Part shown: positions 5,199 through 63,388 of the stretch, piece by piece
Numbering within the stretch: the stretch's first letter is position 1
Layout: every line of letters starts with the position of its first letter
DNA from: a virus
Strand: one strand, 5' to 3'
DNA length: 64,000 nucleotides
Virus record (IMG/VR): IMGVR_UViG_3300030012_003189
Span: 1 to 64,000 of that record
Notes under the pieces: model-generated
Seen by the model: only the letters and a program-made list of their open reading frames with translations
Database searches by the model: none
What the model was told of the DNA's origin: nothing
Made by a program: the position numbers and the translations under genes

Positions 5199-5524
5199 AA
5201 TCTTTGTAAATCTCCCTCTACTGATATTTTATCCGAACCAACCAATGCATAACTAAAGTTTTCTTTTTTAAATTTGATGAAGAAATCCCTTCCTACTTGT
5301 TCAAAAATATAATCCGCATCTAATATAAATTGTCCATTTATAAATACATCGAATCTTGAATGGTCTGGTCTAAGATTATCAAATCTATTATTCATATCTT
5401 TTATTTTACAATTTGATATTTTCCAAATGTAGTGATTTACATCAGCTAAATTTACCTCTTCCATTATGAATTCATTTGGTTCATTTAGTTGTTGTAAAAC
5501 ATCTCTTATTTCTTTTACACTCAT
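5195..5524 (-). CDS. Putative neck/collar-associated beta-sandwich protein
   Basis: 109 aa; FDVFINGQFI...IKFKKENFSYAL...ISVEGDL, paralogous to neighbours. Confidence 0.6.
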   Translation of the reverse strand: MSVKEIRDVLQQLNEPNEFIMEEVNLADVNHYIWKISNCKIKDMNNRFDNLRPDHSRFDVFINGQFILDADYIFEQVGRDFFIKFKKENFSYALVGSDKISVEGDLQRL

Positions 5525-6660
5525 AATTCTCTAAATTTTCCAACAAATGCAAATTCATCGGTTGATTCTAGTTCGTAACCTAATTCTGTTGAAGATGCTG
5601 ATGAACCAGTGGTAAAATTAAACTCTACCGAATCATCAGAACTACTTACAAAGTAAGAATATTTTGTTGATGGAATAAATAATCCATTTATGTAAACTTT
5701 GAACCAATTATCAACATCAAAGTTTCCTTCTAATGATGGTGGTAGTTTTGGAACTTCTACATCATTAATTTTAACAGTGTCCGCATCTACAAAACTACCC
5801 GATACTGAACCTCTTGTTGCTAAGAAATCTAAAACATCAGCGTATTGATTTAATGCTTTTTGTTTAATAGGATTTACCCCTCCACCTCCACCTGTTAAGT
5901 CTGCTTCATATCCAAAAACAACTTTTTTTGGTGTGTATTCTTTGATAGTAGTAGGTTTATTATTGAATTCAGATGGAAGTAAATAAGCGTTTACTGCCAT
6001 TGTAAATGAAGTTCTAACTATTCTTTCACTTCCTTGTCCTACTTCTGTTTGATTATCAAATGAGTCGATTCTTACCCTAAATTTGTATTTATCTTTATCA
6101 CCCCAATATTCATCTGTAGCGTATTGGAATGCTTCTACGATTTTATTCATATGTTCTGTAAAGTTTGTCCAAATCATCACTTCATATGAAACAGTTACAT
6201 AATCAGGCATCGTAATGTTATATGCTTCAACATTAGGATTTACCTCATTCATCAAACTAAATTTATCGTACTTTTGTTTTTTATTGTATTTTGTTAATGT
6301 AGAATAAGATACATTTCTATTCATAGTATTAGCTAAACTATCATCTCTTGCTATACTATTTCTTTTATACATAATAAGAGGGATTTGGATTCTACCTCTT
6401 TGGTCTCTTATGTATCCATCTTTAGTAGCTGCTTTCCATCTTTCTGGATTTCCATATATCAATGGTACTTTTACTTTAGTTCCATTCTCTTCTACATCAG
6501 GAATGACTACATCAGTCATATATTCCATCATAGCAAAATCTATATCAAATAGCGTAATACCAACTTTTGATTTTTGGTCAATAGCGATTTGTTGCGCTCT
6601 ATTTTTAGTTTTACTAATTGGGTCTGTTGCTTTTTTATTATATCCTGATATATCTGCCAT
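5521..6660 (-). CDS. Tail completion / sheath terminator protein (T4 gp15-like) with extra C-terminal domain
   Basis: KVPLIYGNPERW, IQIPLIMYKR, PDYVTVSYEVMIWT motifs; follows gp13- and gp14-like genes. Confidence 0.65.
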   Translation of the reverse strand: MADISGYNKKATDPISKTKNRAQQIAIDQKSKVGITLFDIDFAMMEYMTDVVIPDVEENGTKVKVPLIYGNPERWKAATKDGYIRDQRGRIQIPLIMYKRNSIARDDSLANTMNRNVSYSTLTKYNKKQKYDKFSLMNEVNPNVEAYNITMPDYVTVSYEVMIWTNFTEHMNKIVEAFQYATDEYWGDKDKYKFRVRIDSFDNQTEVGQGSERIVRTSFTMAVNAYLLPSEFNNKPTTIKEYTPKKVVFGYEADLTGGGGGVNPIKQKALNQYADVLDFLATRGSVSGSFVDADTVKINDVEVPKLPPSLEGNFDVDNWFKVYINGLFIPSTKYSYFVSSSDDSVEFNFTTGSSASSTELGYELESTDEFAFVGKFREL

Positions 6661-7115
6661 TATACTATTCTCTCCTCTATATTAAGTTGAGACCTTCTAA
6701 CCATAAATGTAGAACATATGATTGAGAACTTCTCTTCAGGTCTACCATATACTAATTGGTTTTGACCAACTTTATCAATTTCAAAATATGCATTATTATG
6801 AAAAATAATATCTCCAATTTCAGGAAATAAATTTTTCTCTTCTAAAGTTGCCCTATTAAATCTAAATTCAGCATTTTGTGCTCTATCAGGTCCGAATCCT
6901 TCATATTCTATAGTACTTTCATCCCTCTCAATTAAACAAGCACATTGTACGGCAGGTAAGTATGATTTACCCAAAGATTCCCCATATAGATTAGTTCTTG
7001 TTTCAGATAAAGATAATTTAAATATCTCAACTGTAGTCTGAACTACTACATCCACTAATTCTTTAGAAATCTTTTCAAAGAATGCTAAATCTTTTTGTTG
7101 TACAAATCTTGCCAT
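6660..7115 (-). CDS. Neck / head-closure protein (T4 gp14-like)
   Basis: NLYGES, FPEIGDIIFHNNAYFEI motifs; synteny. Confidence 0.65.
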   Translation of the reverse strand: MARFVQQKDLAFFEKISKELVDVVVQTTVEIFKLSLSETRTNLYGESLGKSYLPAVQCACLIERDESTIEYEGFGPDRAQNAEFRFNRATLEEKNLFPEIGDIIFHNNAYFEIDKVGQNQLVYGRPEEKFSIICSTFMVRRSQLNIEERIV

Positions 7116-7119
7116 TTGC

Positions 7120-8265
7120 TTATCCTATATAAATGTTCAAAGGTACTTTAGATATAACTCTCTGTTGTGCATCTGATTGGTCTGCTTCACTCTGATACCT
7201 TTCTTTATCTGATAAATCATTAAGTACATCTCTTAATTGTTCTATCAAAGCATCTTTCTCAGTTTGAGCTTCTGACCTAAGAGCCGCTCCATCTAATGAT
7301 ACCTCAGAACCAGGAATAGGTACAGATGAGAATTTTTCTCTAATTGCTCCTAATAATTCTTTAGCTAATGCTAATGTATATTTTCTAATCCATTGTTTAC
7401 CAACATCATTTATCCTACTATAGTTATGGAAATCATATCCTGTATTTGAATAATCTGCTACTACTCCATCTGTTACAGATGTTGCTGATTGGTCGAATTC
7501 TGATTTTACAATATATTCAAAATACAGTGTTGATTTTTTCACTGGTTTTGGGAATATTTGTAGTTTATTGTTTACTAAATTAAATGTAAATGCTGATTTT
7601 CTAATTTGGTCATTAAATTCAATAGCTCCAATTCTAAGTAAATCTTCATATATTGGCATCAATACAAATTGTGCCGCTGGTGAGAATGAACCAAATCCAA
7701 ACTCATCAATTAAGTTTAGAGTTCCTTGTCCACTTACTGAATATGGGTCAAAGAATTTATTTATTGCTGGTGTTGCCTCATAAAATACTTTTGTTACATT
7801 GATTCTATTTCCACTCTCACTTACATCTGCCCATAAAGATTGTAAGTCATATTCTTGTGAACCACTATTAAGTTCTATATTACCTTTTTTTACATCAACT
7901 TTTCCACCAACATTAGCGTATGTTCCATATGAATCTGATATTTCAATAAGGTTAGGTAGTGGGTTACCAGCTATTTTTTTCTGAGTATAATCTGAACCCG
8001 TAGGTTGACCTTGCAAAGATGTAAGGTTGTTTTTTATATTAAATTGATTTACTTGTGCCGAATATTCTGATACTGCTTCTTCGAAACATGCATAGAAGTT
8101 TAAATCTACTAATTCAACATCAACGATTGGGTATCCCAATCTTTTAGCACACCAAGATGCTACTTTAGGCCCATCTGTTTGATATTCTGTATCTGTATCA
8201 TAAATACCAAATGGCGTTGAACCCGAAATTACATTATCTGCTGAACCACTCCAGAAGTTTGACAT
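7120..8265 (-). CDS. Neck / head-tail adaptor protein (T4 gp13-like)
   Basis: RLGYPIVDVEL, WIRKYTLALAKELLGAIREKF, IPGSEVSLDG motifs; downstream of MCP. Confidence 0.75.
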   Translation of the reverse strand: MSNFWSGSADNVISGSTPFGIYDTDTEYQTDGPKVASWCAKRLGYPIVDVELVDLNFYACFEEAVSEYSAQVNQFNIKNNLTSLQGQPTGSDYTQKKIAGNPLPNLIEISDSYGTYANVGGKVDVKKGNIELNSGSQEYDLQSLWADVSESGNRINVTKVFYEATPAINKFFDPYSVSGQGTLNLIDEFGFGSFSPAAQFVLMPIYEDLLRIGAIEFNDQIRKSAFTFNLVNNKLQIFPKPVKKSTLYFEYIVKSEFDQSATSVTDGVVADYSNTGYDFHNYSRINDVGKQWIRKYTLALAKELLGAIREKFSSVPIPGSEVSLDGAALRSEAQTEKDALIEQLRDVLNDLSDKERYQSEADQSDAQQRVISKVPLNIYIG

Positions 8266-8293
8266 ATTTCTCTCCTTTGTATTATTTCTCTTA

Positions 8294-8385: not shown

Positions 8386-10008
8386 TTAGATTTGGTCCAT
8401 ATCTGCGATATCGATAGTACCATAGAATTCTGGTCTTACCATTTTCTTAGCGTATCTAGTCATTACACCTCTTCGAGGAGTAAAGTTAGATGGGTCATAT
8501 ACCAACGGAGTCATGATTAGTGGTACATATGGTGCGTAAACCGCTCCACTTTCAAGGAAGTTATTTCCTTTGTATCCTAACAAGATTTGGTTAGTAGTCA
8601 TGTAAGGATTTTTGTACACAGTATATCTGTTAGATAATGCTCCGATAGCAGTTACACCTGCTGCGAACTCCATAGCATCTTTTCCAGCGTTTACAGTAAA
8701 CTGAGGAATTGATTCTAAGATAGTACATACATCAGGAGATGCTACGATAAAGTTAGCTCCACCTCTAAGAGTTAATTGGTGAATCTTATTAGATACTTTA
8801 TTGATTTTAGTACCTAATGTAGAGAACCAAGTGTTCTTAGTATAAGCTTGACCTGTAAATGAAGAAGTAGTAAATACTGAACCATTCCACTCTTCACCAA
8901 CTTTTGCTGACCATTTATCGTTAGTCAATGCACCAGCTCTAATCATATCTAAGATTTCTAAGTCAATCTCTAATGAGATATACTCAGATAACATAGATGT
9001 TAATTCAGCTTCAGCATCGATTGAATGGTAAGCGTTAAGGTCTTGCGCCAATTCAGGTGTCCATACTGCTTTCAACTTTCTAGTCTTAGCAACGATAGCC
9101 TCTGATTTCAACTCTAGGTCGATTTCAGGAATATCAAGTACAGTACCAGAACCTGCGTTTCCACCAGCATTGTTTACTGGGTCTCTATCTTCAAAGTCAC
9201 CTCTGTTAGTAGAAACAGGAACATTTGCGAACTTAACTCTAGCACCATCAACTAATGGTGAACCAGCAGATGCTGATACGAAGAATATGTAGTCAGTACC
9301 ACTTACTCTGTTATGCTCACCTACAGTTTCAACAAGAGCAACAGATGCAGAATCAATTGTAAATGCTTTGATTGCATCATCATCAGCTGTTGATGAAATG
9401 TTAGATTTAGCTATAGTTAATTTATGAATTTCTCCAGCTGCGATTGATGCGCTGATAGAACTATCATAATTTACATCTGAAAAAGATGCACTTGCAGCTG
9501 CTACATTAGCGGCTACTACATCTGCAGATTGGTCGTTAAGGGTATATCCATAACGTCCACTTCCATATAGACCATTTTTAGCAACATTAGTTGAACCTAA
9601 GTCCGAACCATCACCACCAAATAATGAAGAACCACTATAAGTAGTTGCTCCAAATTGTTGGTTGTTGTATTTAAAGTCTAGATAGAAAATAAGTCCTGAT
9701 GGTAAGTTCATTGGTTGAACAGAAACGAAGTTTTTCGCTGCAATTTCACCAAAGATTCTTCTTACCAAAGGAAGAGCTACACCATTCCACTCCTCATTAC
9801 CTGAGCCGTTAGAAGTAGCATTAGCTTCATCAAGCAATTGTTTTGCTTGGTTTTCTAAAAGAACCGACATTTGATGTTGGTCTCTTTCTTGTAAACCTTC
9901 AAGAAGTCCAGTTTTCTCCCATTTGTTCTTTAATCCTCTTGTTTCCGCAAGCATTACAGACTGTGGGTTCTTTCCTTCCATAAGTTTATTTAAATCAAAA
10001 TTTGCCAT
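8386..10008 (-). CDS. gp23: Major capsid protein (T4 gp23-like)
   Basis: LPLVRR, VSVQPMNLPSGLIFYLDF, AKTRKLKAVWTPELAQDLNAYHSIDAEAEL, YAPYVPL, FTPRRGVMTRY are hallmark gp23 motifs; strong SD AAGGAG. Confidence 0.97.
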   Translation of the reverse strand: MANFDLNKLMEGKNPQSVMLAETRGLKNKWEKTGLLEGLQERDQHQMSVLLENQAKQLLDEANATSNGSGNEEWNGVALPLVRRIFGEIAAKNFVSVQPMNLPSGLIFYLDFKYNNQQFGATTYSGSSLFGGDGSDLGSTNVAKNGLYGSGRYGYTLNDQSADVVAANVAAASASFSDVNYDSSISASIAAGEIHKLTIAKSNISSTADDDAIKAFTIDSASVALVETVGEHNRVSGTDYIFFVSASAGSPLVDGARVKFANVPVSTNRGDFEDRDPVNNAGGNAGSGTVLDIPEIDLELKSEAIVAKTRKLKAVWTPELAQDLNAYHSIDAEAELTSMLSEYISLEIDLEILDMIRAGALTNDKWSAKVGEEWNGSVFTTSSFTGQAYTKNTWFSTLGTKINKVSNKIHQLTLRGGANFIVASPDVCTILESIPQFTVNAGKDAMEFAAGVTAIGALSNRYTVYKNPYMTTNQILLGYKGNNFLESGAVYAPYVPLIMTPLVYDPSNFTPRRGVMTRYAKKMVRPEFYGTIDIADMDQI

Positions 10009-10035
10009 TTTTTCTCTCCTTATAAAATTAAAAAA

Positions 10036-11193
10036 TTATTTAATGTTAGCTAACTTTTTAAATCTGTTAGCTATCTCGTTACTTTCAGAAATAATTTCTT
10101 TCTTAGGAGCAGTTGAAGCTTGAGGTTTAGAAGCGATTCCTTCTGTTACTCTTACTTTTCTTTTAGTTTCTCCACCGAATTTCATTGATTCTGCTAAAGT
10201 AGCGAATACCAATTTCACCTCTCTTACAGATTTTGTTCTGTCAAGAGTTTCTACAACTTTACTCTTTTGGTCATTGTTCATAGCGTATGAACGGAATAAC
10301 TTGTTAGCGTAAAGTAATTTTGCGTTGAGTAGGTTGACTTCGTTGATTGTACTTTTAAGTTCTTTTACAGTAGCGTATGCTTCTTCAAGTTCTTTACTAA
10401 GTTCTTCAACTTTGTTAGATTCTTCCATGTCTTTCATTTCCTCTTCACCTTCTTCTTCTCCGTATCCCATTTCTTTTAGGATTTCGTCTAAGTCGATGTC
10501 TTCGTCCATGTCATCTTCTTCGGAATCTTTTTCCATTTCGTCCATATCAGCCATTTCTTCATCTCCATGCACTTCTTTATCTCCATGCACTTCTTTGTCT
10601 CCATGTACCTCTTTGTCTCCATGTACTTCTTCAACATCCTCATCATCTTCACCTTCTTCTTCAGAAAGTTCAGATTCTAATTCTCTGATGATATCTTCAA
10701 GATTTAACTCTTCGTCCATCTCGTCCTCATCATCACCTTCTTTTGCCATTTCGTCAACTTCTTCAGAATCTTCTTCTTCGTTTACTTCAGTTTCTTCCTT
10801 AACTTCTTCAGTTTCTTCAGATACAGTTTCTTCAACTTCATCCTCTTCTTCACCTTCTTTTAAGTCATCAACTTTGTCAACAGCGTCTAATTCTTCGCCA
10901 GGAGCTGCAGTCTCTTTTTCAGTTTCTGGGTCTAACTCAGTATGAGCCTCATCGTACTCAGGTTCTTTGTTATCTCCACTACCGATGTTTGAAGAATCTA
11001 ACTCTTCTGCTACTTCTTCCATTTCATCTTCTTCTTCTTCTTCAGCCATTTCTGATTGAAGTTTTTTAGATAAAATTGATTGTAGCTTTGGAGTAAATGC
11101 TTCTTCTAATGCGATTTTAGCATTAGCGATTGCAGTTTCTCTTACAGCTTTAGCGTCAGCGATGGCTTCTTTTAATAATTTAGAATTTGCCAT
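10036..11193 (-). CDS. Prohead core scaffold protein (gp22-like), highly acidic
   Basis: 385 aa, Glu/Asp-rich, directly upstream of MCP; C-terminal coiled coil ending RFKKLANIK; many hydrophobic-x-E sites. Confidence 0.85.
   Translation of the reverse strand: MANSKLLKEAIADAKAVRETAIANAKIALEEAFTPKLQSILSKKLQSEMAEEEEEDEMEEVAEELDSSNIGSGDNKEPEYDEAHTELDPETEKETAAPGEELDAVDKVDDLKEGEEEDEVEETVSEETEEVKEETEVNEEEDSEEVDEMAKEGDDEDEMDEELNLEDIIRELESELSEEEGEDDEDVEEVHGDKEVHGDKEVHGDKEVHGDEEMADMDEMEKDSEEDDMDEDIDLDEILKEMGYGEEEGEEEMKDMEESNKVEELSKELEEAYATVKELKSTINEVNLLNAKLLYANKLFRSYAMNNDQKSKVVETLDRTKSVREVKLVFATLAESMKFGGETKRKVRVTEGIASKPQASTAPKKEIISESNEIANRFKKLANIK
10559..10630 (-). repeat. 18-bp tandem repeat x4 encoding EVHGD(K/E)
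   Basis: Near-identical tctccatgYacYtcttt units; protein EVHGDKEVHGDKEVHGDKEVHGDE. Confidence 0.9.
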
Positions 11194-11337
11194 TTTTTGC
11201 CTTCCTTATTAATGTGAAAATATTATGGGATTTCCAATGATGTTAGGTCGGTTGTTCGGTCACCTCATAATAATGGGTATTCATTAACCAACTGAAATTC
11301 AAACACACATAGAATGGTGTGTTACTGAGTATAAGTA
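11194..11337 (-). promoter_or_regulatory. Promoter variant (TACTTATA) plus ~135-nt structured 5' leader of scaffold-MCP operon
   Basis: Hairpin AACACAC/GTGTGTT (11302-11323); stem GTTGGTT/AACCGAC (11286-11292 with 11247-11253) enclosing ACCCAT-TATT-ATGAGGT; SD-like AAGGAAGG. Confidence 0.55.
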
Positions 11338-11362
11338 TTATAATAGATTAAAAAACGTAAAA

Positions 11363-11629
11363 TTATCTTCGTTTTTTTCTTTTCTTTGTAAATAATCTGA
11401 TTGTTCTATCACCATTATCTATCTTTTCCAACATAGTTAACTTCTGTTGTTCCCTTACTGCTGCTTGTTTTTGTTTTCTTCTTACAGTTGTAGGTTTTGT
11501 GTATTGTTGTTTAGTTCTCAACAATTGAAGATGACCAGATTCATCTATTCTTCTTTTAAAAATTTTAAGTGCTTTTTGTATGTTTCCGTTTCTTACTTGT
11601 ACAGAAACTAATTTTGGGTGTTTACTCAT
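11363..11629 (-). CDS. rpsU: Phage-encoded ribosomal protein bS21
   Basis: VQVRNGNIQKALKIFKRRIDESG...QYTKPTTVRRKQKQAAVR matches the S21 family pattern; location among head genes is as described for bS21 phages. Confidence 0.9.
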   Translation of the reverse strand: MSKHPKLVSVQVRNGNIQKALKIFKRRIDESGHLQLLRTKQQYTKPTTVRRKQKQAAVREQQKLTMLEKIDNGDRTIRLFTKKRKKRR

Positions 11630-11647
11630 TCTCCTTTATTTAAATAA

Positions 11648-11983
11648 CTATGCGCCTGTTTTTGAGAAAGTTGGCTTTTTACCTTTAGACCTGTTTCCTC
11701 CCTTTTTAGAATCACCAGCTTTCTTTTGGTCTGCTCTTTTTCTCCTTACAAATGCTGCTCTACCTTTAGCTCCTAATTTAGCTGCTTTTTCTTTTGATAA
11801 ACATGCTGCGTATGCATCACCTTTTTTACCTCCACCACATTTACCTAATTTTTGTCCATCAGAACCATATCTATCCCATCCTCCACCTGATGAAGAACCA
11901 GTCTTACCTTTACCAAACCACTTACGCAAATCTTCGTTTTGTGGTTCGTTTACTAATTCATGTAGGATATCTGTTAAGTTCAT
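11648..11983 (-). CDS. Basic putative internal head protein
   Basis: Leader MNLTDILHELVNE followed by a Lys/Gly-rich module (EDLRKWF...GGWDRY...YAACL). Confidence 0.6.
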   Translation of the reverse strand: MNLTDILHELVNEPQNEDLRKWFGKGKTGSSSGGGWDRYGSDGQKLGKCGGGKKGDAYAACLSKEKAAKLGAKGRAAFVRRKRADQKKAGDSKKGGNRSKGKKPTFSKTGA

Positions 11984-14201: not shown

Positions 14202-14564
14202 TTATTTTTTAGTTGTGTTTTGAAACTTAAACTTCTCACCTGTAATAGATAATTTATCTATGACTTCAGTTTGAACATCTCTTAATAGTTTCTCTAACTT
14301 ATCTTTTTCGATAACCATAGCGGATACTTTATCTTCCAATGCCTCATTCCTAGCTTTTAGTGATTCTACCTCTTCAGGATTCTTACCTATAAAAGTATAG
14401 ATAACAACTGATAATGAACCAACTAACATACCAACGATTACTTTAAATATATCGTTATTAGTTTCTGGTATTTCAAAAAATGCTAAAAATAATAGTAGAC
14501 CCATTACAAGTAAAAATACTGTAGCGGCTCCTAAATATCCTCTTAATTCTTTATCTTCTAACAT
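14202..14564 (-). CDS. Two-TM membrane protein with C-terminal coiled coil (holin-like candidate)
   Basis: Two hydrophobic segments (GAATVFLLVMGLLLFLAFF; VIVGMLVGSLSVVIYTFIG); SD GAGGAG. Confidence 0.55.
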   Translation of the reverse strand: MLEDKELRGYLGAATVFLLVMGLLLFLAFFEIPETNNDIFKVIVGMLVGSLSVVIYTFIGKNPEEVESLKARNEALEDKVSAMVIEKDKLEKLLRDVQTEVIDKLSITGEKFKFQNTTKK

Positions 14565-14587
14565 TATTAACTCCTCTTTCTTTTCTG

Positions 14588-14804: not shown

Positions 14805-16091
14805 TTAACTTTTCCTTTTTACTACCTTATGTAAATCTTCTAATCTTGAAATAGCATCTTCAATGTGATTTAATGCATCATTGTTTTCACCAGCATTTAG
14901 TAAATCCATCATTTCTTCAAAGTCTTGCTTTATGTTTCCATTCTGAGCTTTCGCCATTCTGATAAGGTTTCTATCAGGTCTACCCTCAGGTAACATTTTA
15001 CTTAATCTCATTGAAGATTCATTAGTATCATCAAAAATTGATTGCATTTTTAATGCTAAATCTTTACTTCCATTTACTTTTAAATCAAATGCGATAGCAT
15101 CTAATGCATCTCTACCATCATAAGAAGCTTCTTGAGAAGCAAATTGTCCTATCTCATCAGTACCAGGTGATGAATCATAATATGAAGAACCATATACACT
15201 ATTCTTTCTCCATTTATCATATTCAGGTGACATGATATCTGGCATATTAGGGTCTTTTCTTGGGTCTTTAGCAAAATCAGGATTATCTTCTAACATTGCG
15301 ATTAATTTTCTTGCTTCAGAATGGAAGTTTGAATCTGTTAATGCTTCTACTGCTGCTTGACCCATTCTTCTTTGATATTCTTCTTTACCTAAGTTCTTTG
15401 GACTAATTCCGATTCTTTTTATTTTACTACGAACTGCTTTGTTTACTTCAATGTTTCCTGCTCTACCACCAGTCGAATCTTTTTGTGGTCCACTATCTTT
15501 AGGTTCTTCTTTATCTTTTTCACCTTTAAGTTTTTGTCCTAACTCTTTTGCGTATGCTACTGCATCTTCTTTACTATTGAATGATTTGTAATGATTATCA
15601 GCACGAGCATTATCCATATCATCAACTTTTCCACCAAATACGGCAAATTTATTAGGGTCATCAAATAATTTACCTTTAGAAATTTGCATATAATTACCAT
15701 CCGAATCTTCAAAATCTTCAGTACCTTCCATTCCACCCAAATCAGCTGATGAGAATCCCATATCTTTCATTGTTGATTCGATATCTCTTTTAAAATCTTT
15801 AAACTTAGCTTTCTTAGGTTTATCTTTTTCACCGGCAGAAGAGTCACCTCCCTTCGCTGCCTTATCTTTTTTTGGTTTATCAAAAATATTTACTTTAGGT
15901 TTATCGGTTGGGTCTTTAACTGCACCATCCTTATCATCTTTTCTTTTTTCGTGAGTACCTGCTTTTATTGCAGCATCTCTTGCTGCTTTTGATTTAAATA
16001 CAGAAGTTGTACCTGTTTCTTTACTGGTAGCAGTAAAAACATCTGCTTCAGTAATTGGTTTTAAATCTATTAATCCACCTAATTTTATCAT
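14805..16091 (-). CDS. Putative internal head protein, Lys/Asp-rich
   Basis: 428 aa; leader MIKLGGLIDLKPITE/A; directly downstream of prohead protease. Confidence 0.55.
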   Translation of the reverse strand: MIKLGGLIDLKPITEADVFTATSKETGTTSVFKSKAARDAAIKAGTHEKRKDDKDGAVKDPTDKPKVNIFDKPKKDKAAKGGDSSAGEKDKPKKAKFKDFKRDIESTMKDMGFSSADLGGMEGTEDFEDSDGNYMQISKGKLFDDPNKFAVFGGKVDDMDNARADNHYKSFNSKEDAVAYAKELGQKLKGEKDKEEPKDSGPQKDSTGGRAGNIEVNKAVRSKIKRIGISPKNLGKEEYQRRMGQAAVEALTDSNFHSEARKLIAMLEDNPDFAKDPRKDPNMPDIMSPEYDKWRKNSVYGSSYYDSSPGTDEIGQFASQEASYDGRDALDAIAFDLKVNGSKDLALKMQSIFDDTNESSMRLSKMLPEGRPDRNLIRMAKAQNGNIKQDFEEMMDLLNAGENNDALNHIEDAISRLEDLHKVVKRKS

Positions 16092-16672
16092 GATAATTCT
16101 GTTATTATTTCTCTTATTAAATCGTGTGCTTTACAATAATCTCCACAAACTTCATTAACTTTAAGTTGTTTTGATTCGTTCATCGGAGTCATAAATGCAC
16201 CATGTGTAGACGGGTTGGATACAAAATCCCAACCTATTAGTTCAAAATCATCACCAACAGTTACACCACCACCATTTCTTGGTTCTACTGAACCCATACC
16301 TCTTGATGAGATACCTAATAGAATGCCAGCTTTTAACAATTCTTTAAGAATGTTACCAGATGGCGTTGGTAGTATTTCAACAGTTCCCATCAAATCATCA
16401 TTTTCCCAATGAATTTCTCTAATGTTGTGTGATACGTTCTTTAAATTTATTACAGAAGATTCTGGATGGTCTAACTCACCCAACGCTCTTCTTTCTTTTA
16501 TGAGAGTTTCATATTTCTTAGCTTCTCTCATTAGAATTTCTTTAGGATAAACCCTTTCGTTTTGGTTAGGCGCTTCAGCTCTCTGTAAGATTCCTTTTAC
16601 GATAGTTCTACCTGATGAATCTTCGTTTATTTTACCTTCGAATAAATGAGTTTCTATAAGTAAATTTTTCAT
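16088..16672 (-). CDS. gp21: Prohead core protease (T4 gp21-like)
   Basis: NQNERVYP, ALGELDHP, VSHNI, GISSRGMGS, WDFVSNPST motifs; likely start is ATG 16672 (TAATG coupling, SD GGGGAG). Confidence 0.93.
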   Translation of the reverse strand: MKNLLIETHLFEGKINEDSSGRTIVKGILQRAEAPNQNERVYPKEILMREAKKYETLIKERRALGELDHPESSVINLKNVSHNIREIHWENDDLMGTVEILPTPSGNILKELLKAGILLGISSRGMGSVEPRNGGGVTVGDDFELIGWDFVSNPSTHGAFMTPMNESKQLKVNEVCGDYCKAHDLIREIITELS

Positions 16673-16857
16673 TATGCTCCCCAACTTCTACGTTTTTTAA
16701 ATAATTCAAAAAATATTGCTGAAACTTCTTGTCTGATAATCTTACGAATCTTATCTTCATCTTCGTTAGTTACCTCTTCATTGACTAAAGAAATTCCACC
16801 ATATTTGTGGATTAGAATTTCTTCTTTAACAATTTGTTTCAACTTATCTATTTTCAT
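16672..16857 (-). CDS. Small putative head-associated protein
   Basis: 61 aa; MKIDKLKQIVKEE leader. Confidence 0.6.
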   Translation of the reverse strand: MKIDKLKQIVKEEILIHKYGGISLVNEEVTNEDEDKIRKIIRQEVSAIFFELFKKRRSWGA

Positions 16858-18439: not shown

Positions 18440-20170
18440 TTATTCCTCTATAATGTTATTTTCATCCAACATATCTGTCTCTTGAAGAAACTTTCGTTTT
18501 GATGAAACACCATTAACTATACTCTTAATTTTATCGGATGATAACCTGGTTTCCTTCTTTAACGCATTTTTACGTTCTTCGTCCCCAAGAGGGTCTCTAC
18601 CATAAGGATGTTTATCTTTCTTATAAGTATTACCTTCTCTCGGTCTACCACCTTTATCTTTCAACTCATTTTTAAGATTTTCCAAAGATTCTTCTACATC
18701 AACTGGCTCTTCATCTTCTTTAGCTGGGTCACTACCCTCATCTTCGATTGAACGGAATCTGTATCTATCTTTTAAATCTTCAATCATTGTTTCTCTTTGT
18801 TTATCAGATTCACCTCTACTCAATTTAAAGATATTATCATATACCCATTCTTTGGATAACATATTTAAACCTTGAATGTCTTGTGCTAATCTAATCTTTT
18901 CACTCCAAAGATTTACTTTTTCTTGCTCATATATCATTGATGGGTTAACCAATCCTAATTCAAAGTTAGTTAACTCTGCATCTTGAATACCTTGTGAGTA
19001 TAAATGAACGATTGCAATTTTTGTTAACTCAGAAATTACAATTCTTTGGATTCTTTCGATTGTTCTTGCGAATCTAACATCTTCAGCTGCTAATGTTGCT
19101 TTACCATTAACCTGCTCTTCGTATCCTAAATAAGCTTTTGGTATTTTAAGAGCTGCAAATAGTTTATTTTTAAGATAATCAATATCTTCAATGTTACTAA
19201 ACTCTAAACCTGATAGGTTTTCAATATTAGTACCACTATCACCACCTCTGACTGGTAAGTAAAAATCTTCTGTAAGGTTTTGTATATTATACTTTAGGTT
19301 GTAATCACCTGTATTTTGGTCAACAAATGGAATCTTCTTCATTTTGTTGATGATTCTTTGCATATAGTTATCTACTTCGTTTGGTGGGATGTTACCTATA
19401 TCAATTTTGAACACTCTCTTTTCAGGTGCTCTCATAATTCTATGAATCAACATAGCATCTTCCATCAGAGATAATTGTTTCCATAATCTTCTACCATTTT
19501 CAATCATAGCTTTACCATATGGTAAGAAGTTTGTATCAGCTAATAATCTAAAATGTGCTACTTCGAAGTTATCATAATCCACTTTACCTAATGAATCATC
19601 TTCTACGTGGAATTTTACAAAGTTTGGATTGTTAGGGTCTGTATTTTCTAATCTTTCTGTATTGTAAACAGATAGTGGAGATACATTTACAATACCTTTA
19701 CCCTCAGCCATCTCCAATGAAAGGAAGAAATCTCCATACTTACACATATTTCTTACCCAAGGCCAAAGATTGAATTCAATATTTAGTACATCGTAGAATA
19801 AGTTGTTTAGAATCTGTTGTACTTGTTCATTTGTTGAACGAACTGTAAGAATATCACCATATTCATTCTTTAGTGTTGATTCATCAGCGTATATATCTAA
19901 TGCTGATGCCAAAATAGGGTCATTATCCATAGCATCATAATCTCTGAATAATTCTCTACGAACTTGTTGATATGCCATTGATTGGGCTGCACCTGCTGAT
20001 TCGTAAAATCCTTTTTGTAATTTTGTGTATCGGTCTCTTAGATGAGATAAGTTTGTTTTTTGTCTCATATCGACATCAGAAACTTTTCTTCTACCTTTAG
20101 CATCGACTCTAACGACTGCTTGTGTAGCGAATAGTTTTCTTAATCTACCGAAAAATGAAGTATCTGCCAT
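18440..20170 (-). CDS. gp20: Portal protein (T4 gp20-like)
   Basis: QLSLMEDAMLIHRIMRAPEKRVFKIDIGN, EDFYLPVRGG, LFAALKIP motifs. Confidence 0.95.
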   Translation of the reverse strand: MADTSFFGRLRKLFATQAVVRVDAKGRRKVSDVDMRQKTNLSHLRDRYTKLQKGFYESAGAAQSMAYQQVRRELFRDYDAMDNDPILASALDIYADESTLKNEYGDILTVRSTNEQVQQILNNLFYDVLNIEFNLWPWVRNMCKYGDFFLSLEMAEGKGIVNVSPLSVYNTERLENTDPNNPNFVKFHVEDDSLGKVDYDNFEVAHFRLLADTNFLPYGKAMIENGRRLWKQLSLMEDAMLIHRIMRAPEKRVFKIDIGNIPPNEVDNYMQRIINKMKKIPFVDQNTGDYNLKYNIQNLTEDFYLPVRGGDSGTNIENLSGLEFSNIEDIDYLKNKLFAALKIPKAYLGYEEQVNGKATLAAEDVRFARTIERIQRIVISELTKIAIVHLYSQGIQDAELTNFELGLVNPSMIYEQEKVNLWSEKIRLAQDIQGLNMLSKEWVYDNIFKLSRGESDKQRETMIEDLKDRYRFRSIEDEGSDPAKEDEEPVDVEESLENLKNELKDKGGRPREGNTYKKDKHPYGRDPLGDEERKNALKKETRLSSDKIKSIVNGVSSKRKFLQETDMLDENNIIEE

Positions 20171-20199: not shown

Positions 20200-20604
20200 T
20201 TACCAAGCTCTACAACTCCAATACCTAGCCTTATGTCTTGGACCAGGATTATCACAGTTGTGTCTTGCTCTGAATGCTTTTCTTCGGGCTGGGTCTGATT
20301 TTTTAATTCTCATTGTTTTCTCACCACCCTTACCTTTGTGACCGAAATTAACTTTTACCACGTTACCTTTCGGATTTTTTACATAAACTTTGAATTTTGC
20401 TACATCACCTCTTGTTGGTTTACCTAATTTTACCTTTCTACCTTGATACTCAGCTTCATTTACATCAGGTTTGTAATGTTTTAAAAATTCTATAAGCTCT
20501 GAAATGTCTTGTTCGTTCACTACATCATACTCTTCAACCTCTTCGGCTTCATTTCTGATAATATTAATGTGATTAGAATATAATGCTTTTGTAATATTGT
20601 CCAT
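20200..20604 (-). CDS. Basic phage protein (VNFG...FRARHNC...ARYWSC), probable internal head protein
   Basis: Acidic leader ending VNE/AEYQG then a basic domain; SD TAAGGAG; TATTTATA at 20621-20628. Confidence 0.6.
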   Translation of the reverse strand: MDNITKALYSNHINIIRNEAEEVEEYDVVNEQDISELIEFLKHYKPDVNEAEYQGRKVKLGKPTRGDVAKFKVYVKNPKGNVVKVNFGHKGKGGEKTMRIKKSDPARRKAFRARHNCDNPGPRHKARYWSCRAW

Positions 20605-20643
20605 AATTAACTCCTTACACTATAAATATATAATTTTTCATTA

Positions 20644-22224
20644 TTACCTAATTAACCAAGTCAAATCCTCATCGGTATCACCAACTCTTTGTGTCCAAGG
20701 GTTTCCATCTACAGTACTTCCACCACCATAAACTCCTTGTCCATGCGTTTGTTGTCCAATACTACCTAAAGCTTGTTTTGTTAAATCAATACCTTCCTGT
20801 CTTAATCTCAAAGCGGTATCTCTAACCCACAATCCGATTGCGAATGACATAGTTAAATCATCATTATAACCTTTCATTGCTTCAGCTCTATTACCACTCC
20901 ATATAAATGTAAATAATTCATCTATAAGGCGTGATGAACGAACCATACAAGATTTTTCTCTGAAGTAATCATCTAATTTAGATATAATCAGAGGTCTTGT
21001 CTTAGATGTAGTACTAAAACCAGCTACCATACCTCTTTCTTCTCTTCGGTATTTATTTGTCATCTGATTTTCTACATCTACATATTTTAAATCCTTACTC
21101 ATATAAAATAAGTTAGGATATGCTCTATCAATTATCTGTTGGATTACTGCCCAACCTATATTTGCGTTTTCAACTACTAATAATGCGTTATTGTACTCTG
21201 TTGCTAATGCAACTAAAAAGTTTCCAAAGTCTTTTGTTTCCAATTTTCCTTTGTACTCAGCTACTTGTGAAGCTTGTTCAACATCAAAGACGTGACAAGC
21301 AGAGTAATCTGTTGAATCTCCTCTAGCTACATCAGCTACTACCATATAACTTTTGTTGTAATCAGGATATTCCCATTTCCATAGGTTTCCATCAAATCCA
21401 GTCTTTTCAATTGGTTCTTGTATATGTGTTTCTTTGTAAAACATAAGGAGTTGAGGGTCAATCACTGTATCACCAGAGGAAACGAAATCACAATCACATT
21501 CTTGAGCCGCTCCTTTTGGTCCTAATAGTTTTTCTTGTTCATCTCTCCAAGTTTGGTCTCTTTCAGGATGTACACTCCAATGTAAACGGATTGTATTAAA
21601 TCCATTTTCCTCTTCTTCGGCTCCTACCCATGTCTTATGAAAGAAATTTCCTACACCATTTGGTGTTGAAAGGATAACTGCACTACCACCAGTAGATAAG
21701 GTAGATTGTGCTGATACCCATATATCTTCAATCTTATCAATGAATGCTGCCTCATCAAATACTAATAAGGATAGTGCTTCAGAACGACCAGCATCACCAG
21801 CTGCTGATGTTGCTTTTATCTGAGAACCATTTGAATATCTAAGAGATAGTTTATTATCTTCTATAGCTGTTTGTTTTAACCACGATGGTAAGTTATCATT
21901 CATATATCTTACCTTAGTAACTAAGTTTTTAGCTACTTCTTGTTTAGTTGCTATAATTAAAATATTGAAATCAGAATTAAATAACATTTTCCAAAGAGAA
22001 AATCCCGCTACTAATGTTGATATACCAGTTTGTCTTGATTTAAGAACTATGTTATATCTATTCTCATCAAATTGTGTAAGAGTTCTTTCTTGAAATTCAA
22101 ATAAATGAAAAGGTATCTTCCCTCTAACTGGGTGCTGAATATAGCAGTACTTTTTCATAAAGTGAATCGGGTCTGATGCACATTTCTGATATTCAATTTT
22201 GATAATCTCCTTTAAGGATGCCAT
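20644..22224 (-). CDS. terL: Terminase large subunit (T4 gp17-like)
   Basis: Walker A KSRQTGIST, Walker B LLVFDEAAF, coupling motif STPNG, RNase H acidic residues (ADVARG, VENAN, NDDL). Confidence 0.96.
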   Translation of the reverse strand: MASLKEIIKIEYQKCASDPIHFMKKYCYIQHPVRGKIPFHLFEFQERTLTQFDENRYNIVLKSRQTGISTLVAGFSLWKMLFNSDFNILIIATKQEVAKNLVTKVRYMNDNLPSWLKQTAIEDNKLSLRYSNGSQIKATSAAGDAGRSEALSLLVFDEAAFIDKIEDIWVSAQSTLSTGGSAVILSTPNGVGNFFHKTWVGAEEEENGFNTIRLHWSVHPERDQTWRDEQEKLLGPKGAAQECDCDFVSSGDTVIDPQLLMFYKETHIQEPIEKTGFDGNLWKWEYPDYNKSYMVVADVARGDSTDYSACHVFDVEQASQVAEYKGKLETKDFGNFLVALATEYNNALLVVENANIGWAVIQQIIDRAYPNLFYMSKDLKYVDVENQMTNKYRREERGMVAGFSTTSKTRPLIISKLDDYFREKSCMVRSSRLIDELFTFIWSGNRAEAMKGYNDDLTMSFAIGLWVRDTALRLRQEGIDLTKQALGSIGQQTHGQGVYGGGSTVDGNPWTQRVGDTDEDLTWLIR

Positions 22225-53215: not shown

Positions 53216-54031
53216 TTAAACAACTGCTCTACCTTTCATATTTTCCCAATCCCTATTTGTTCTCACAACATCATTGGTTTCTTCTACGGCATTTAAAACA
53301 TTCGATTCAGTATCTAAATTCATAGCTAAGTATATTAGAGCCGATAAGTCTTTAGGTAAACAATGTCCTCCAAATCCAAAATCACCATCTGGTCCTGGTA
53401 CATTCCAATGTGATTTACCTAATCTATCATCTAATGTTGCATATTCAACAACTTTATCGTAATCAATATTTAACTTTTCACACACTTGATATATTTCATT
53501 AGCAAAAGAAACTTTAGTTGCCAAAAATGAATTGGTCAAATATTTTACCATTTCAGCGTGGGTAGAATCTGTTTTAATTATATGAGCTTTTGGAAATACT
53601 TTTGAGTATATTCTTCTTAATTTTGTAGTTGATGGTCTTGGTCCTCCTAAGATAATTCTATTTTGATTATTAAAATCTTCTACTGCATTAGCTTCAGTTA
53701 AAAACTCTGGATTGAAAACTATATCAATATCGTAATTTGAATTCCATCGTGCAGTAGTACCTGGTGATACTGTCGATTTTACAACGATAGTTTTACATTT
53801 TTTTAATTTACATATTTTATCAATTGTCCATTCAACTAATTCAGTACTACAACTACCATCACTATTCATTGGTGTTGGTAAACAAACGAAAACAATATTT
53901 TGTGACATAGCTTCTGTTTCGCCTGATGTTCTTTTGCTTTCATCTAAATCATAAGTGTAAACATCGAAGTAATTTTTAAATTTTTGATAAATTGCATTAC
54001 CAACAAATCCTTGTCCTATAATTCCTATCAT
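53216..54031 (-). CDS. ugd: UDP-glucose/GDP-mannose 6-dehydrogenase-like (lacks the C-terminal domain)
   Basis: GQGFVG, CLPTP, KSTVSPGT, FNPEFL.E, AEMVKY..N, GFGGHCLPKD. Confidence 0.85.
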   Translation of the reverse strand: MIGIIGQGFVGNAIYQKFKNYFDVYTYDLDESKRTSGETEAMSQNIVFVCLPTPMNSDGSCSTELVEWTIDKICKLKKCKTIVVKSTVSPGTTARWNSNYDIDIVFNPEFLTEANAVEDFNNQNRIILGGPRPSTTKLRRIYSKVFPKAHIIKTDSTHAEMVKYLTNSFLATKVSFANEIYQVCEKLNIDYDKVVEYATLDDRLGKSHWNVPGPDGDFGFGGHCLPKDLSALIYLAMNLDTESNVLNAVEETNDVVRTNRDWENMKGRAVV

Positions 54032-54909
54032 AATTGTTCTTTTAAATATTCAAATAACGTTTTTGTTATTTTTGGTTTTTCAAAATCTGTATCTAATGTA
54101 TATCTTCTATCATGCCCTTTTCTATCTTCTACAAATTCATACTTTGGTGCTTTACCTAAAAGAAATGCTATGTGAGCTACTATATCTATATTTTGTAAAG
54201 TATCACCACTACCAATATTATAAGTACCTTCTTTATATAACATTAATTTTAAGATTTCTTTAACATTATCTTCGACCCAAATCCATTCTCTAATTTGTTT
54301 ACCATCACCATATACAGGTATTGGTTTATCCTCTTTTATTGAACGCATGATTGTGGGAATAAACTTTTCACTATGTTGGTTAATACCAAAGTTGTTACAA
54401 GTACGAGTTATAACATAAGGTAATCCAAACGTATGTCCACAACTATAAACTAACATATCAGCCGATGCTTTTGTTGCTGAGTAGTAAGATGATGGATATA
54501 AAAAGTTTTGTTCAAACGATGCATCAATATCTAATAAATCTAAATCACCATAAACTTCATCGGTACTGATTTGTACAAACTTTTGTAACTTTGGATTTTT
54601 TCTAGCTAATTCTAAAAGATTATATGTTCCTTCTATATTTGTTTTTACAAAAGGTTTACCATCTTTGATTGAGTTATCAACATGAGATTCAGCTGCAAAG
54701 TTTACTAAAAAATCATACTCACCTAAATCTTCTGCGGTTACATCACATATATCTTTTTTTAGAATTGGTATCTTTGGAATACTATCTACATTGGAAGCGT
54801 ATGTTAGTTTATCTACTACCAAAACATCTAATCCTTTACTAACACATAAATTAGCAAAAGAAGAACCTATAAAACCAGCTCCACCAGTAATGATTACTCT
54901 TATACTCAT
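54028..54909 (-). CDS. rmlB: dTDP-glucose 4,6-dehydratase
   Basis: GGAGFIG, DKLTYA, NFAAESHVDNSI, ISTDEVYG, YSATKAS, DRKGHDRRY. Confidence 0.93.
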   Translation of the reverse strand: MSIRVIITGGAGFIGSSFANLCVSKGLDVLVVDKLTYASNVDSIPKIPILKKDICDVTAEDLGEYDFLVNFAAESHVDNSIKDGKPFVKTNIEGTYNLLELARKNPKLQKFVQISTDEVYGDLDLLDIDASFEQNFLYPSSYYSATKASADMLVYSCGHTFGLPYVITRTCNNFGINQHSEKFIPTIMRSIKEDKPIPVYGDGKQIREWIWVEDNVKEILKLMLYKEGTYNIGSGDTLQNIDIVAHIAFLLGKAPKYEFVEDRKGHDRRYTLDTDFEKPKITKTLFEYLKEQL

Positions 54910-55541
54910 ATTAAATTTGTCTTTGGGTTTTTAAATGAATCAGCATGATATTTAAAAATAGCTGAATACACTCCATCATTATTCCATTTCCTACCATTTC
55001 TATAAAATTGCTGGTGTTTTAGTTCTAATCTATCACATAAAGAATAAATGAAATCTGGTGAAACATAATTTATATTTTCTAATAAAAATAAATACCCACC
55101 AACATTTAAATACTTATCTAAATCTCTAAAAAACTTTTTATGAAAACTATAATCTTCATCAACTAATATTCTTGGATTATGATTAGTATGTTTTGGTTTA
55201 TGTGGAAAATGTGGTGGATTTGAACAAATAAAATCAACCTTTGGTCCATCATAATTATCAAAAGCATCACTTACATAAAACTTAGCATCTAAGTTATTTT
55301 GCTTATTTGTTTCTTCTATACACTCTCTATTTGGTTCATAAATATCTATTAGATGAATATCTTTTATTCCATATTTCATAGCTATATGAAACCCCATAAA
55401 GCCAGGTCCACTACACATTTCCATTATGGAATTTACCTTTGGGAAATCATAATTTTGGTAATCACGCACCCAATTTATTCCACCACCATTTAATCCCCTT
55501 TTCCAATATACATTGTTAAAATTTAACATTACTGAATCCAT
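54906..55541 (-). CDS. SAM-dependent methyltransferase (HemK/NPPY-type)
   Basis: EMCSGPG motif I; ICSNPPHF motif IV. Confidence 0.75.
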   Translation of the reverse strand: MDSVMLNFNNVYWKRGLNGGGINWVRDYQNYDFPKVNSIMEMCSGPGFMGFHIAMKYGIKDIHLIDIYEPNRECIEETNKQNNLDAKFYVSDAFDNYDGPKVDFICSNPPHFPHKPKHTNHNPRILVDEDYSFHKKFFRDLDKYLNVGGYLFLLENINYVSPDFIYSLCDRLELKHQQFYRNGRKWNNDGVYSAIFKYHADSFKNPKTNLI

Positions 55542-58500: not shown

Positions 58501-58656
58501 AATATCACCAGCAATATAGATGATAGAATCTTCTATATTATCTTGTTTAACTTGTTTTAAGAATTTATTGAATACTTCTCTGTATTCTTTGTGTCTCTTC
58601 AGATTTCTAATATGTAAATCTGCTAAGTGATAAATTTTATTTATGGTATAACTCAT
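55516..58656 (-). CDS. Fused Mre11/SbcD nuclease - Rad50/SbcC ATPase (gp47+gp46-like)
   Basis: ADLH, AGDI, GNHD, LGDIH phosphoesterase motifs; Walker A PNASGKS; zinc-hook CDIC; signature CSGMER; Walker B/D-loop IDEGFGTLD; ISH. Confidence 0.92.
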   Translation of the reverse strand: MSYTINKIYHLADLHIRNLKRHKEYREVFNKFLKQVKQDNIEDSIIYIAGDIAHAKTEMSPELVQEISWFLTECAKLRETVLITGNHDCNLNNNYRLDVLTPIIENLSNPRIHYLRDTGVYNIHNLTFVVYSILDNKENWPKADTVDGAHKICVFHGPVNDSKTDVGYIVSSNSFTEEMFDGFDMALLGDIHKRQTIGGDHIAYAGSMIQQNHGESLDKHGYLLWDVPTRTFEEFNIPNDYGFYTLDVDNGVVPDVTDMPKKPRLRVRISNTDPSQIKRALTEIKKKYKVQEFTVTRMDTLTKQKIGDFDTNLTIGNVRDVELQNELIKGYLERQYLADDDTIDKIQQINRDINTKLTDDDVTPNIQWIPQSFEFTNMFSYGEGNKVDFTKTKGIVGIFAPNASGKSALFDSLSFCIYDKTSRTFMAKNILNNRKTHFRCKLHFQIDEVDYYIERRAKLINHGRNLKVDVDFWSDENGHITSLNGEQRKDTNKSIIQYLGKYEDFVLTTLSLQGDNALFIDKSQSERKEILAQFMGVDIFDKLYGLASDENRDNASLIRKFKSDDFTTRLADIENDLKTSIEEYGEMEKEQETAKGKEEDLQNQIVRLNEKIVKLNADSGVSIEELEKRLKILQKKKDKVDTDKDSIQNRITQREELQITLEEILDKFDEEVLEEGMDSLSEAKFDSNKIKSELDKVEIKLDSLYERKQHLDSHKYNEQCDICMENSQTILEQKEKVDKELDEKESENKELKSKLSELEIKIDSLKTLEEEWKNFNEAKEKEDKIDREISQLINKLSTIETEEFKNSTQITQQEQLIEEYYKNEKQIKKNKEVRDEIVDVRSDLTKIKQIIRNNNTDILRMNGTISALQNQKETIEDRIKEVKDLEETHNLFEYYLNSLGRDGVSYELIQKALPMIEGEVNNILGQIVDFGMQLEMDGKNVNAFIVYDDQKWGLEMCSGMERFISGLAIRIALINVCNLPRPNFLVIDEGFGTLDNENLTSLYMLFAYLKTQFDFVMIISHIDSMRDVVDSLVEIKKVNGFSNVKF

Positions 58657-61411: not shown

Positions 61412-61431
61412 AAGATATACAATTTACAATG

Positions 61432-61463
61432 TAAATATACGAAAAATTTTTCAATTTTCCAAA
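61432..61463 (-). promoter_or_regulatory. Bacteroidota sigma70-type promoter (TTTG-N20-TATATTTA) upstream of primase
   Basis: Minus strand TTTG GAAAATTGAAAAATTTTTCG TATATTTA versus consensus TTTG-N19-21-TAnnTTTG. Confidence 0.55.
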
Positions 61464-61855
61464 TCTTTTCTAAAGAATTTTCCTAAAATATTATCATTAA
61501 AGCAATGAGATTCATATAAAACATTATGTTTTATCTGTTCTTCTAACTCATAATAAGTCATTGCTTTCTTTGTTTTACAGAATCGTAAGATGAATTTTTC
61601 GATATCATCACCATCCCACTTCTTTACTTCAGCGTGTGATGATTGATAATCTTTCCAATTTGATTCTTTTACTACCTTTCTTTTTCTCTTTGTACCTTTT
61701 AGTGGTGGTAGTGTTCGGTGTGCGTACAAAGATTTTCTTCCGATATAAAATTCACCTGATATTTTCTTTCGGATTTTGTATATAAATCCTATTGAATCTT
61801 CAGGCATATCGGAAATTTCGGTAATCAGTTTACCTTCATATTTCCATGTGGGCAT
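61451..61855 (-). CDS. GIY-YIG-like nuclease
   Basis: GFIYKI...FYIGRK...WKDYQSS...YYE...FNDNI; ATG at 61855 (track uses TTG at 61861). Confidence 0.7.
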   Translation of the reverse strand: MPTWKYEGKLITEISDMPEDSIGFIYKIRKKISGEFYIGRKSLYAHRTLPPLKGTKRKRKVVKESNWKDYQSSHAEVKKWDGDDIEKFILRFCKTKKAMTYYELEEQIKHNVLYESHCFNDNILGKFFRKDLEN

Positions 61856-61866
61856 AGTCAAAAAGT

Positions 61867-63359: not shown

Positions 63360-63388
63360 ATGATATTACTCCTTTATATAAATATCAC

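Follow-up and report, generated by a model that had tools for sequence, protein, structure and literature searches.

A phage bS21 without the conserved tyrosine in a marine virus with Shine-Dalgarno-led virion genes: a possible late switch of ribosome specificity

Ribosomes of the Bacteroidia carry a conserved anti-Shine-Dalgarno (anti-SD) sequence that is normally hidden, and the only use of a freed anti-SD in these bacteria of which we know is the autoregulation of the host rpsU gene. Ribosomal proteins encoded by phages are common in aquatic viruses, bS21 being by far the commonest of them. Could a phage bS21 that lacks the means of hiding the anti-SD turn the ribosome towards those viral mRNAs that carry a Shine-Dalgarno (SD) site? 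The question is raised by a gene for a bS21 of 88 amino acids at 11363-11629 on the minus strand of IMG/VR virus record IMGVR_UViG_3300030012_003189, a sequence of 102,940 bp that is about 54% complete and has 31% GC. The window analysed here is the first 64 kb of this record. The phage protein carries an arginine in place of a tyrosine that is invariant in the Bacteroidota proteins compared with it, and SD sites precede a conserved subset of the virion genes. A marine bS21 family without the aromatic residue, together with a conserved SD set restricted to certain modules, is what is new in this locus; phage bS21 genes, their place beside head genes and their late expression were already known (Mizuno 2019, Chen 2022).

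Judged by its sequence, the open reading frame (ORF) is a true bS21. It matches PF01165 (E 7.7e-14, 51.6 bits against a cut-off of 27) and TIGR00030 (E 1.2e-15, 57 bits against a cut-off of 28.95), and it finds the bS21 chains of solved ribosomes at E values of 9e-8 to 1e-4. Its AlphaFold2 model (mean predicted local distance difference test score 89.8) has helices at residues 17-31, 33-39 and 48-71, a KPT motif occupies residues 45-47 and Arg59 sits mid-way in the long last helix. HMMER pairs Arg59 with Tyr54 of the Flavobacterium johnsoniae chain 7jil_z and with the tyrosine of chain 9i5v_9. In bS21 from 81 Bacteroidota genomes of GTDB, aligned to the phage protein without gaps, a tyrosine stands 14 residues past the lysine of KPS in 81 of 81, and the phage has arginine at this place. 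The Bacteroidota pattern is KPS-x4-RKQK-x2-A-[VI]-Y and the phage protein reads KPT-x4-RKQK-x2-A-V-R, so that an earlier note on this DNA was right in its claim that the tyrosine had been replaced by arginine. At the adjacent position 55 the Bacteroidota proteins have valine (62), lysine (16) or isoleucine (3), and the phage has Glu60; in the F. johnsoniae ribosome residue 55 (Ile/Val) contacts the 3′ tail of the 16S rRNA (PMC7797042). The same note had spoken of an added basic tail, and this too is borne out: the part after KPT is 41 residues long with a net charge of +12, whereas the part after KPS in the Bacteroidota set has a median length of 21 residues and charges between 0 and +4 (mean +2.6; n=81).

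Both traits belong to the family as a whole. Arg59 is invariant across 44 aligned members, and a basic C-terminal extension of 27 residues with the pattern LEKI-x-GD-x-IRLFTKKRKK is kept. The family is large and marine, with proteins of 86-110 residues encoded on contigs of up to 244 kb in Tara and other ocean data; members 57-99% identical occur in many marine studies and the gene is under clear constraint. DNA of the record itself was found by a sequencing-run search in the marine metagenomes of about eight studies. When residues 1-47 are compared with the PDB, the top matches are two Bacteroidota-type chains (25.9 and 23.3 bits), with Firmicutes close behind at 21-22 and Proteobacteria at 14-16. 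A scan of GTDB returned Bacteroidota bS21 only, a result biased by the search patterns used, and tail residues 45-88 alone gave no match among PDB sequences. With an N-terminal stretch of 47 residues that scores best on Bacteroidota-type chains on one side and Arg59, Glu60 and the basic tail on the other, the protein has the look of a docking half of the Bacteroidota type to which a tail like that of SD-using bacteria has been joined. Its C-terminal half thus appears to have lost the features by which Bacteroidia ribosomes hide the 16S 3′ tail.

The structural and genetic work on F. johnsoniae gives these residues their meaning. Tyr54 is stacked on A1534 at the turn of the 16S tail toward bS18 and bS6, and the Bacteroidetes bS21 tail is unusually non-basic (PMC7797042). 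Replacement of this residue (Y54A) or deletion of the C-terminus raises the translation of strong-SD mRNAs 3- to 5-fold and does not help SD-less ones (PMC9976891). The F. johnsoniae protein belongs to the same family as that of the phage, the N-terminal half of the latter seems closest to the Bacteroidota type, and the two share RKQKQ-AV-x-QQ around the critical residue. Arg59 is the natural counterpart of the engineered Y54A, for which the gain on strong-SD mRNAs is about 3-fold in vivo and in vitro. In contrast to the F. johnsoniae mutants, the phage variant arose in nature and has 27 extra residues ending in a run of lysine and arginine.

The second part of the question is whether the phage mRNAs offer sites that a free anti-SD could read. 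Nearly all genes of the record lie on the minus strand, as do all the sites and genes described here. TAAGGAG (10016-10022) stands 7 nt before the major capsid protein (MCP) gene at 8386-10008, AAAGGAG (8272-8278) 6 nt before the head-tail adaptor/neck gene at 7120-8265, and the SD-like AAGGAAGG (11200-11207) before the gene for an acidic scaffold of the head module at 10036-11193. GAGGAG (14571-14576) precedes the gene at 14202-14564 by 6 nt, and GAGGAG (6672-6677) the gene at 5521-6660 by 11 nt. TAAGGAG (20611-20617) lies 6 nt before the gene at 20200-20604, between terminase and portal, and AAAGGAG (63369-63375) lies 9 nt before the gene at 62085-63359, the first of a tail/baseplate block that extends over about 62-81 kb of the record. 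For all genes the start was taken from a simple longest-ORF rule, which went wrong once. For the prohead protease (16088-16684) it chose a TTG at 16684, and the true start is most likely the ATG at 16672, which overlaps the upstream stop as TAATG and is preceded at a spacer of 4 nt by GGGGAG (16677-16682). Every one of these sites had been listed in the earlier note and is present. They are complementary to the 16S 3′ tail, well spaced and more frequent than chance; they would raise initiation by pairing with the anti-SD.

A core of GGAG or GAGG no more than 14 nt from the start is found in 17 of the 109 genes of the whole record, where the frequency over all positions predicts 7.0 (p 5.7e-4); in 2000 shuffles of the leaders the mean was 5.1 genes and the maximum 11. 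The core lies at a spacer of 4-12 nt in 15 genes. With this spacer demanded, and with in-frame starts as far as codon 25 admitted for both classes, 13 of 39 virion-block genes are SD-led and none of 33 sugar/replication genes (Fisher p 1.2e-4), with 2 of 38 among the remainder. The SD-less genes form a run of 25 sugar, nucleotide-sugar and other non-virion genes at 22225-47181 and a group of 8 sugar, nuclease/SbcCD-like and primase genes at 53216-61861. The claim that sugar and replication genes start without an SD therefore stands, and so does the claim that SD strength separates structural from other genes; only about a third of the virion-block genes are SD-led. The leaders differ more broadly as well, G making up 27% of positions -14 to -6 in virion blocks and 10% in sugar/replication genes (p 1e-7). 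Duplex energies have a noisy background, about 6% of control sites reaching -7 kcal/mol.

Comparison with other genomes indicates that the set of sites is kept and that its distribution is unusual. In related contigs with proteins of 55-85% identity, GGAG has been retained ahead of 8 of 10 MCP orthologs, 7 of 10 neck orthologs and 5 of 5 orthologs of the gene at 20200-20604. Portal, TerL and protease (ORF taken from the upstream TTG) have orthologs that score SD-less in every relative, where the GGGGAG ahead of the true protease ATG was left unscored. A similar split is seen in another family member (G045), with SD genes at 6 of 29 versus 1 of 25. Genes with an SD core make up 35% in the SAR11 phage Mosig and 18% in the Microcystis phage Mel-JY01, and in both they occur in nearly every 10-kb bin; in the Flavobacterium phage immuto they amount to 4%, which is background. 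In the record of the window, the figure is 25-40% in virion regions and 0 of 49 genes in the bins at 30-60 kb and 90-103 kb. At the Mel-JY01 rate, the chance of finding none among 33 to 49 genes is 6e-5 to 1e-3.

The SD-free genes have a start context of their own, one resembling that of Flavobacterium. In the non-virion leaders, A makes up 67% of positions -14 to -12 versus 44% at other positions (p 8.5e-5), and G is reduced to 10% versus 18% for the strand (p 1.3e-4). This A-rich, G-poor profile is also that of immuto; the leaders of Mosig and Mel-JY01 are G-rich at -8 to -11 even without a core. Experiments in F. johnsoniae identified A-12 and A-13 as positive determinants of translation (PMC6847099).

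The bS21 gene is embedded in the head module, no more than a few genes away from those for prohead protease and MCP and on the same strand. Upstream lie the terminase (TerL, 20644-22224) and the portal (18440-20170), which like protease, neck and MCP were assigned by PHROGs. From 18372 down to the end of the bS21 gene at 11363 the genes are tightly packed, with gaps of no more than 23 nt. The gap that follows, between bS21 and scaffold (11194-11362), is with 169 nt the longest within the module, and a simple scan found no intrinsic terminator in it. The same arrangement is known from freshwater myoviruses of Bacteroidetes, in which bS21 lies on the same strand in the head module between protease/portal and scaffold/capsid, and in which it is transcribed late together with the structural genes (Chen et al. 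2022, PMC9723584). These phages also have a large myovirus genome with T4-like capsid, portal and terminase, and their closest cellular bS21 come from Bacteroidota. They differ in the critical residue: 61 of 61 of their bS21 are aromatic at position 54 (54 Tyr, 7 other), whereas the family described here has arginine in every member, and the conclusion of Chen et al. was that the anti-SD is blocked by the phage protein in the way of the host's own (PMC9723584). Unlike the freshwater phages, this family is marine, its tail is long and strongly basic, and a conserved subset of its virion genes is SD-led.

The bS21 gene itself has an SD-like site of a different kind. AAAGGAGA (11630-11637) abuts the ATG with a spacer of 1 nt, too close for productive pairing. 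The geometry AGGAGA-ATG recurs at the bS21 start in 13 family loci (among L100-L111 and L123-L125); the sister groups L121, L122, L126, L127 and L118 have no GGAG there. In F. johnsoniae, rpsU has a well-spaced extended SD for autoregulation, unlike the phage gene with its site touching the ATG. As such a short spacing would not allow productive pairing, ribosomes with a free anti-SD may repress bS21 synthesis through this site.

It is proposed that the phage bS21 may free the anti-SD, so that SD-led virion mRNAs would be translated preferentially late in infection; a rough probability of 0.4 is given to this reading. The phage would infect a marine host of the Flavobacteriia type with ribosomes blind to SD sites, and its early and middle genes (sugar, replication) would for this reason use SD-free leaders that are A-rich at -12/-13. 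Phage bS21, made with the head genes, would exchange into 30S subunits and leave the anti-SD free. The conserved subset of virion mRNAs in which AAGGAG lies 4-12 nt ahead of the start, among them those for capsid, scaffold, neck, protease, baseplate wedge and several genes without a name, would then initiate better, and through AAAGGAGA the converted ribosomes would hold down any further synthesis of bS21. This complete form, a timed switch in which SD-led virion mRNAs out-compete host and early phage mRNAs while bS21 limits itself, is put forward tentatively and with the odds against it. The exchange step has a precedent in the bS21 of the Pelagibacter phage HTVC008M, which enters E. coli 70S ribosomes (Mizuno et al. 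2019, PMC6375957). A literature search returned no paper in which a phage bS21 without the tyrosine is proposed to free the anti-SD. If true, this would be the first example of a virus that re-programs the ribosome's choice of start signal, with a bearing on the turnover of marine Flavobacteriia, since the family is abundant in marine metagenomes of many studies. Should the host read SD sites in the normal way, what remains is one more phage bS21 of a host-like type.

Loss of the tyrosine, the basic tail and the split in SD use speak for such a switch, which the earlier note had suggested; a number of other findings weigh against it. The published effect of Y54A is only about 3-fold (PMC9976891). 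In the record itself, an SD core is missing from 26 of the 39 virion-block genes, among them portal, TerL and both fibre genes, so that the portal is not the lone exception among structural genes for which it had been taken. One SD-led gene (84660-85235) lies behind an early-type promoter, and the candidate late promoter described below precedes SD-led and SD-less genes alike, virion and non-virion. Tyr-less bS21 is also widespread. An unbiased HMMER search gave 150 best cluster representatives, of which 56 have arginine at the tyrosine position, 29 lysine and 8 tyrosine, the non-aromatic state being the commonest. Among 43 loci scored that hold both capsid and bS21 genes, a non-aromatic bS21 goes with an SD-less capsid gene in at least 21 and with an SD-led one in 17, and an aromatic bS21 with an SD-less capsid gene in 4 and with an SD-led one in 1; SD use can therefore not be predicted from loss of the tyrosine alone. 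In the same slot, Mel-JY01, a phage with Microcystis as its recorded host, encodes a bS21 of the Lys type, and GGAG precedes its genes for capsid, sheath and tube; the pairing of Tyr-less bS21 with SD sites thus also exists in a phage recorded on an SD-reading host.

The phylogenetic contrasts are of the same kind. The aromatic residue can be set against SD use in 4 independent contrasts on the tree (the Tyr-type relatives L118-L120 are left out, their records holding no capsid gene), of which none goes against the prediction and about 1.6 for it, and a tail charge of at least +8 goes with SD use in 3.4 contrasts versus 1.0 (7-8 contrasts); neither is significant. A whole clade with a short Arg-type bS21 (55-62 residues) has SD-less capsid genes. 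The converse is seen in L219/G049 (IMGVR_UViG_3300006737_000020, 103 kb), which is Tyr-type and yet has 28% of its genes SD-led genome-wide. Its bS21 has a Bacteroidota-like acidic tail and an N-terminal extension of 25 residues, the opposite pairing to that of the window. Because its SD genes are spread over the whole genome, L219 looks less like a true counter-example than like a phage whose host reads SD sites. Tyrosine loss and SD use are thus linked only weakly across the clade, and the loss is at most necessary, not sufficient. The trait that arose together with the virion-only SDs, in a single evolutionary event at the root of the window's clade, is the long basic tail.

Whether a switch is plausible depends on the host, for which Bacteroidota, as the earlier note assumed, is probable on several indirect lines of evidence. 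The calibration of SD use against Mosig, Mel-JY01 and immuto, the A-rich and G-poor leaders, a shared promoter and the nesting of the capsid in its tree all favour it, as do the N-terminal scores of bS21, and with such a host the switch becomes plausible. In the MCP tree, the SD-positive, long-basic-tail clade of the window is nested among SD-less lineages with A/C-rich capsid leaders, including the Tyr-type L159. No link to a host was found by CRISPR (clustered regularly interspaced short palindromic repeats), tRNA or prophage; the window has no tRNA genes and the record no sorting domain of the type IX secretion system (PF18962). A DNA search of five Flavobacteriales metagenome-assembled genomes (MAGs) that hold related phage contigs gave no spacer-like exact match, the sequencing-run search returned marine metagenomes only, with none pointing to a host, and GTDB genome searches with the bS21 protein alone and with the carbamoyltransferase returned nothing. 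The nearest cultured phages are Flavobacterium immuto (TerL 56%, MCP 49% identical) and Microcystis Mel-JY01 (TerL 57%, MCP 51%), and since these infect different phyla, relatedness does not name the host phylum. Bin labels are about half Bacteroidota among 46 GTDB hits. They are weak evidence, because a single marine Flavobacteriales bin, NAT55 (G041), holds at least five contigs of clade phages (L230, L250, L257 and others) and is either heavily contaminated with phage or a hint of the host. One contig of 2.4 kb, which carries a bS21 of the family type and a capsid fragment with 76% identity to that of the window, is binned with a Flavobacterium MAG and was given no weight.

The SD sites and the bS21 would have a more ordinary meaning if the phage infects a non-Bacteroidota marine host that reads SD sites, or a lineage without sequestration. 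The sites would then be normal enhancers on the most abundant virion proteins, and the Arg-type basic bS21 would mimic an SD-competent bS21 for general takeover or upkeep of ribosomes, as proposed for other phage bS21. The pairing in Mel-JY01, the mostly non-aromatic residue in related bS21, the binning of clade contigs with many phyla and one sugar gene 63-65% identical to a gammaproteobacterial MAG gene are in keeping with this. Such a host is nevertheless unlikely: the tested phages of SD-reading hosts are SD-led in nearly every 10-kb bin, whereas here none of 33 to 49 genes outside the virion blocks is, and the leaders of the sugar and replication genes are G-depleted with the A-12/-13 signature of F. 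johnsoniae and immuto. Moreover, the N-terminal half of bS21 fits Proteobacteria poorly, and the gammaproteobacterial match is a single gene in DNA of 44% GC.

With a Bacteroidota host, the phage bS21 and the SD-like sites might also have nothing to do with each other. The protein could serve late ribosome completeness, counter a translation-stalling defence or choose mRNAs via its divergent N-terminal helix, and the AAGGAG leaders could be unstructured leaders, binding sites of a phage factor or targets of bS21-poor ribosomes. Chen et al. proposed mRNA selection by the N-terminal helix and a role in counter-defence (PMC9723584), the SD-less clade with short Arg-type bS21 keeps a Tyr-less protein without SD targets, and the SD-like site of the bS21 gene has a non-productive 1-nt spacer. 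Against this, AAGGAG (often 7 nt) is the exact complement of the 16S tail, lies mostly 6-9 nt from the start and is kept at specific orthologs, and the related immuto, without bS21, has no such leaders; separate roles are accordingly rather improbable. That bS21 is a passenger and the GGAG excess mere noise, from purine-rich intergenic DNA or miscalled starts, is very improbable. The longest-ORF rule with its one wrong start and the control sites that reach -7 kcal/mol leave some room for it, but the enrichment survives shuffles and alternative starts, GGAG is conserved across orthologs, and the bS21 family is under constraint, with 57-99% identical members in many marine studies, an invariant Arg59 and a conserved tail.

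The cultured phages with which the locus was compared share parts of its organization. HTVC008M and Mosig also carry bS21 in a marine myovirus. Their protein is about 32% identical to that of the window and derives from the SAR11 host's own bS21; in Mosig, the gene lies among non-structural genes and SD genes run throughout, with no split by module. Immuto (MW353176) and Mel-JY01 (PP395634) have the order terminase, portal, protease, scaffold and capsid. Immuto differs in lacking both a bS21 in that slot and any use of SD sites, and Mel-JY01 in having a short-tailed, Lys-type bS21 of 75 residues and SD-like sites genome-wide.

Promoter-like elements are shared with these phages as well. An early-type element, TTG-N20-TATATTT[A/G] with the core TTTCGTATATTT, occurs in 5 copies on the coding strand of the record. 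One lies before the primase gene (core at 61433-61444, as TTG-N20-TATATTTA) and the others at record positions 85267, 93009, 96789 and 97042, before several small genes. The same core is present in 18 copies on the coding strand of immuto, and TTCGTATATTT is the core shared by the cultured relatives. Mel-JY01 also has it, as TAAATTTG or TATATTTG, an exact fit to the -7 box of the Bacteroidota sigma-A, which in flavobacteria is TAnnTTTG (PMC9723704). Because the element fits both the Bacteroidota TTG/TAnnTTTG and the sigma-70 geometry, it does not by itself name a host. The candidate late promoter is ATATTTATA, found on the sense (minus) strand 3-40 nt before about 15 genes, at 8294-63384 of the window and beyond.

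Two candidates were tried and rejected. The alternative anti-SD of some Flavobacteriia (ASD2, AUCUCAUU) does not fit the AAGGAG sites of the phage. A gammaproteobacterial host had been suggested by the short-chain dehydrogenase/reductase (SDR)/dehydratase gene at 54028-54909 on the minus strand, which is 63-65% identical to one gene in two complete 2.1-Mb gammaproteobacterial MAG chromosomes. Only this gene is shared and the MAG DNA has 44% GC. Relatives of the two MAGs have homologs of only 42-49%, no neighbouring gene is shared, and the match looks like an isolated transfer.

Lastly, GTTAC(A) or GTTAT is found 0-20 nt upstream of the bS21 start (about 11640-11650 of the window, minus strand). 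The motif recurs in L112, L113, L121, L154, L213 and L219, loci that include Arg-type, Tyr-type and short forms of the protein.

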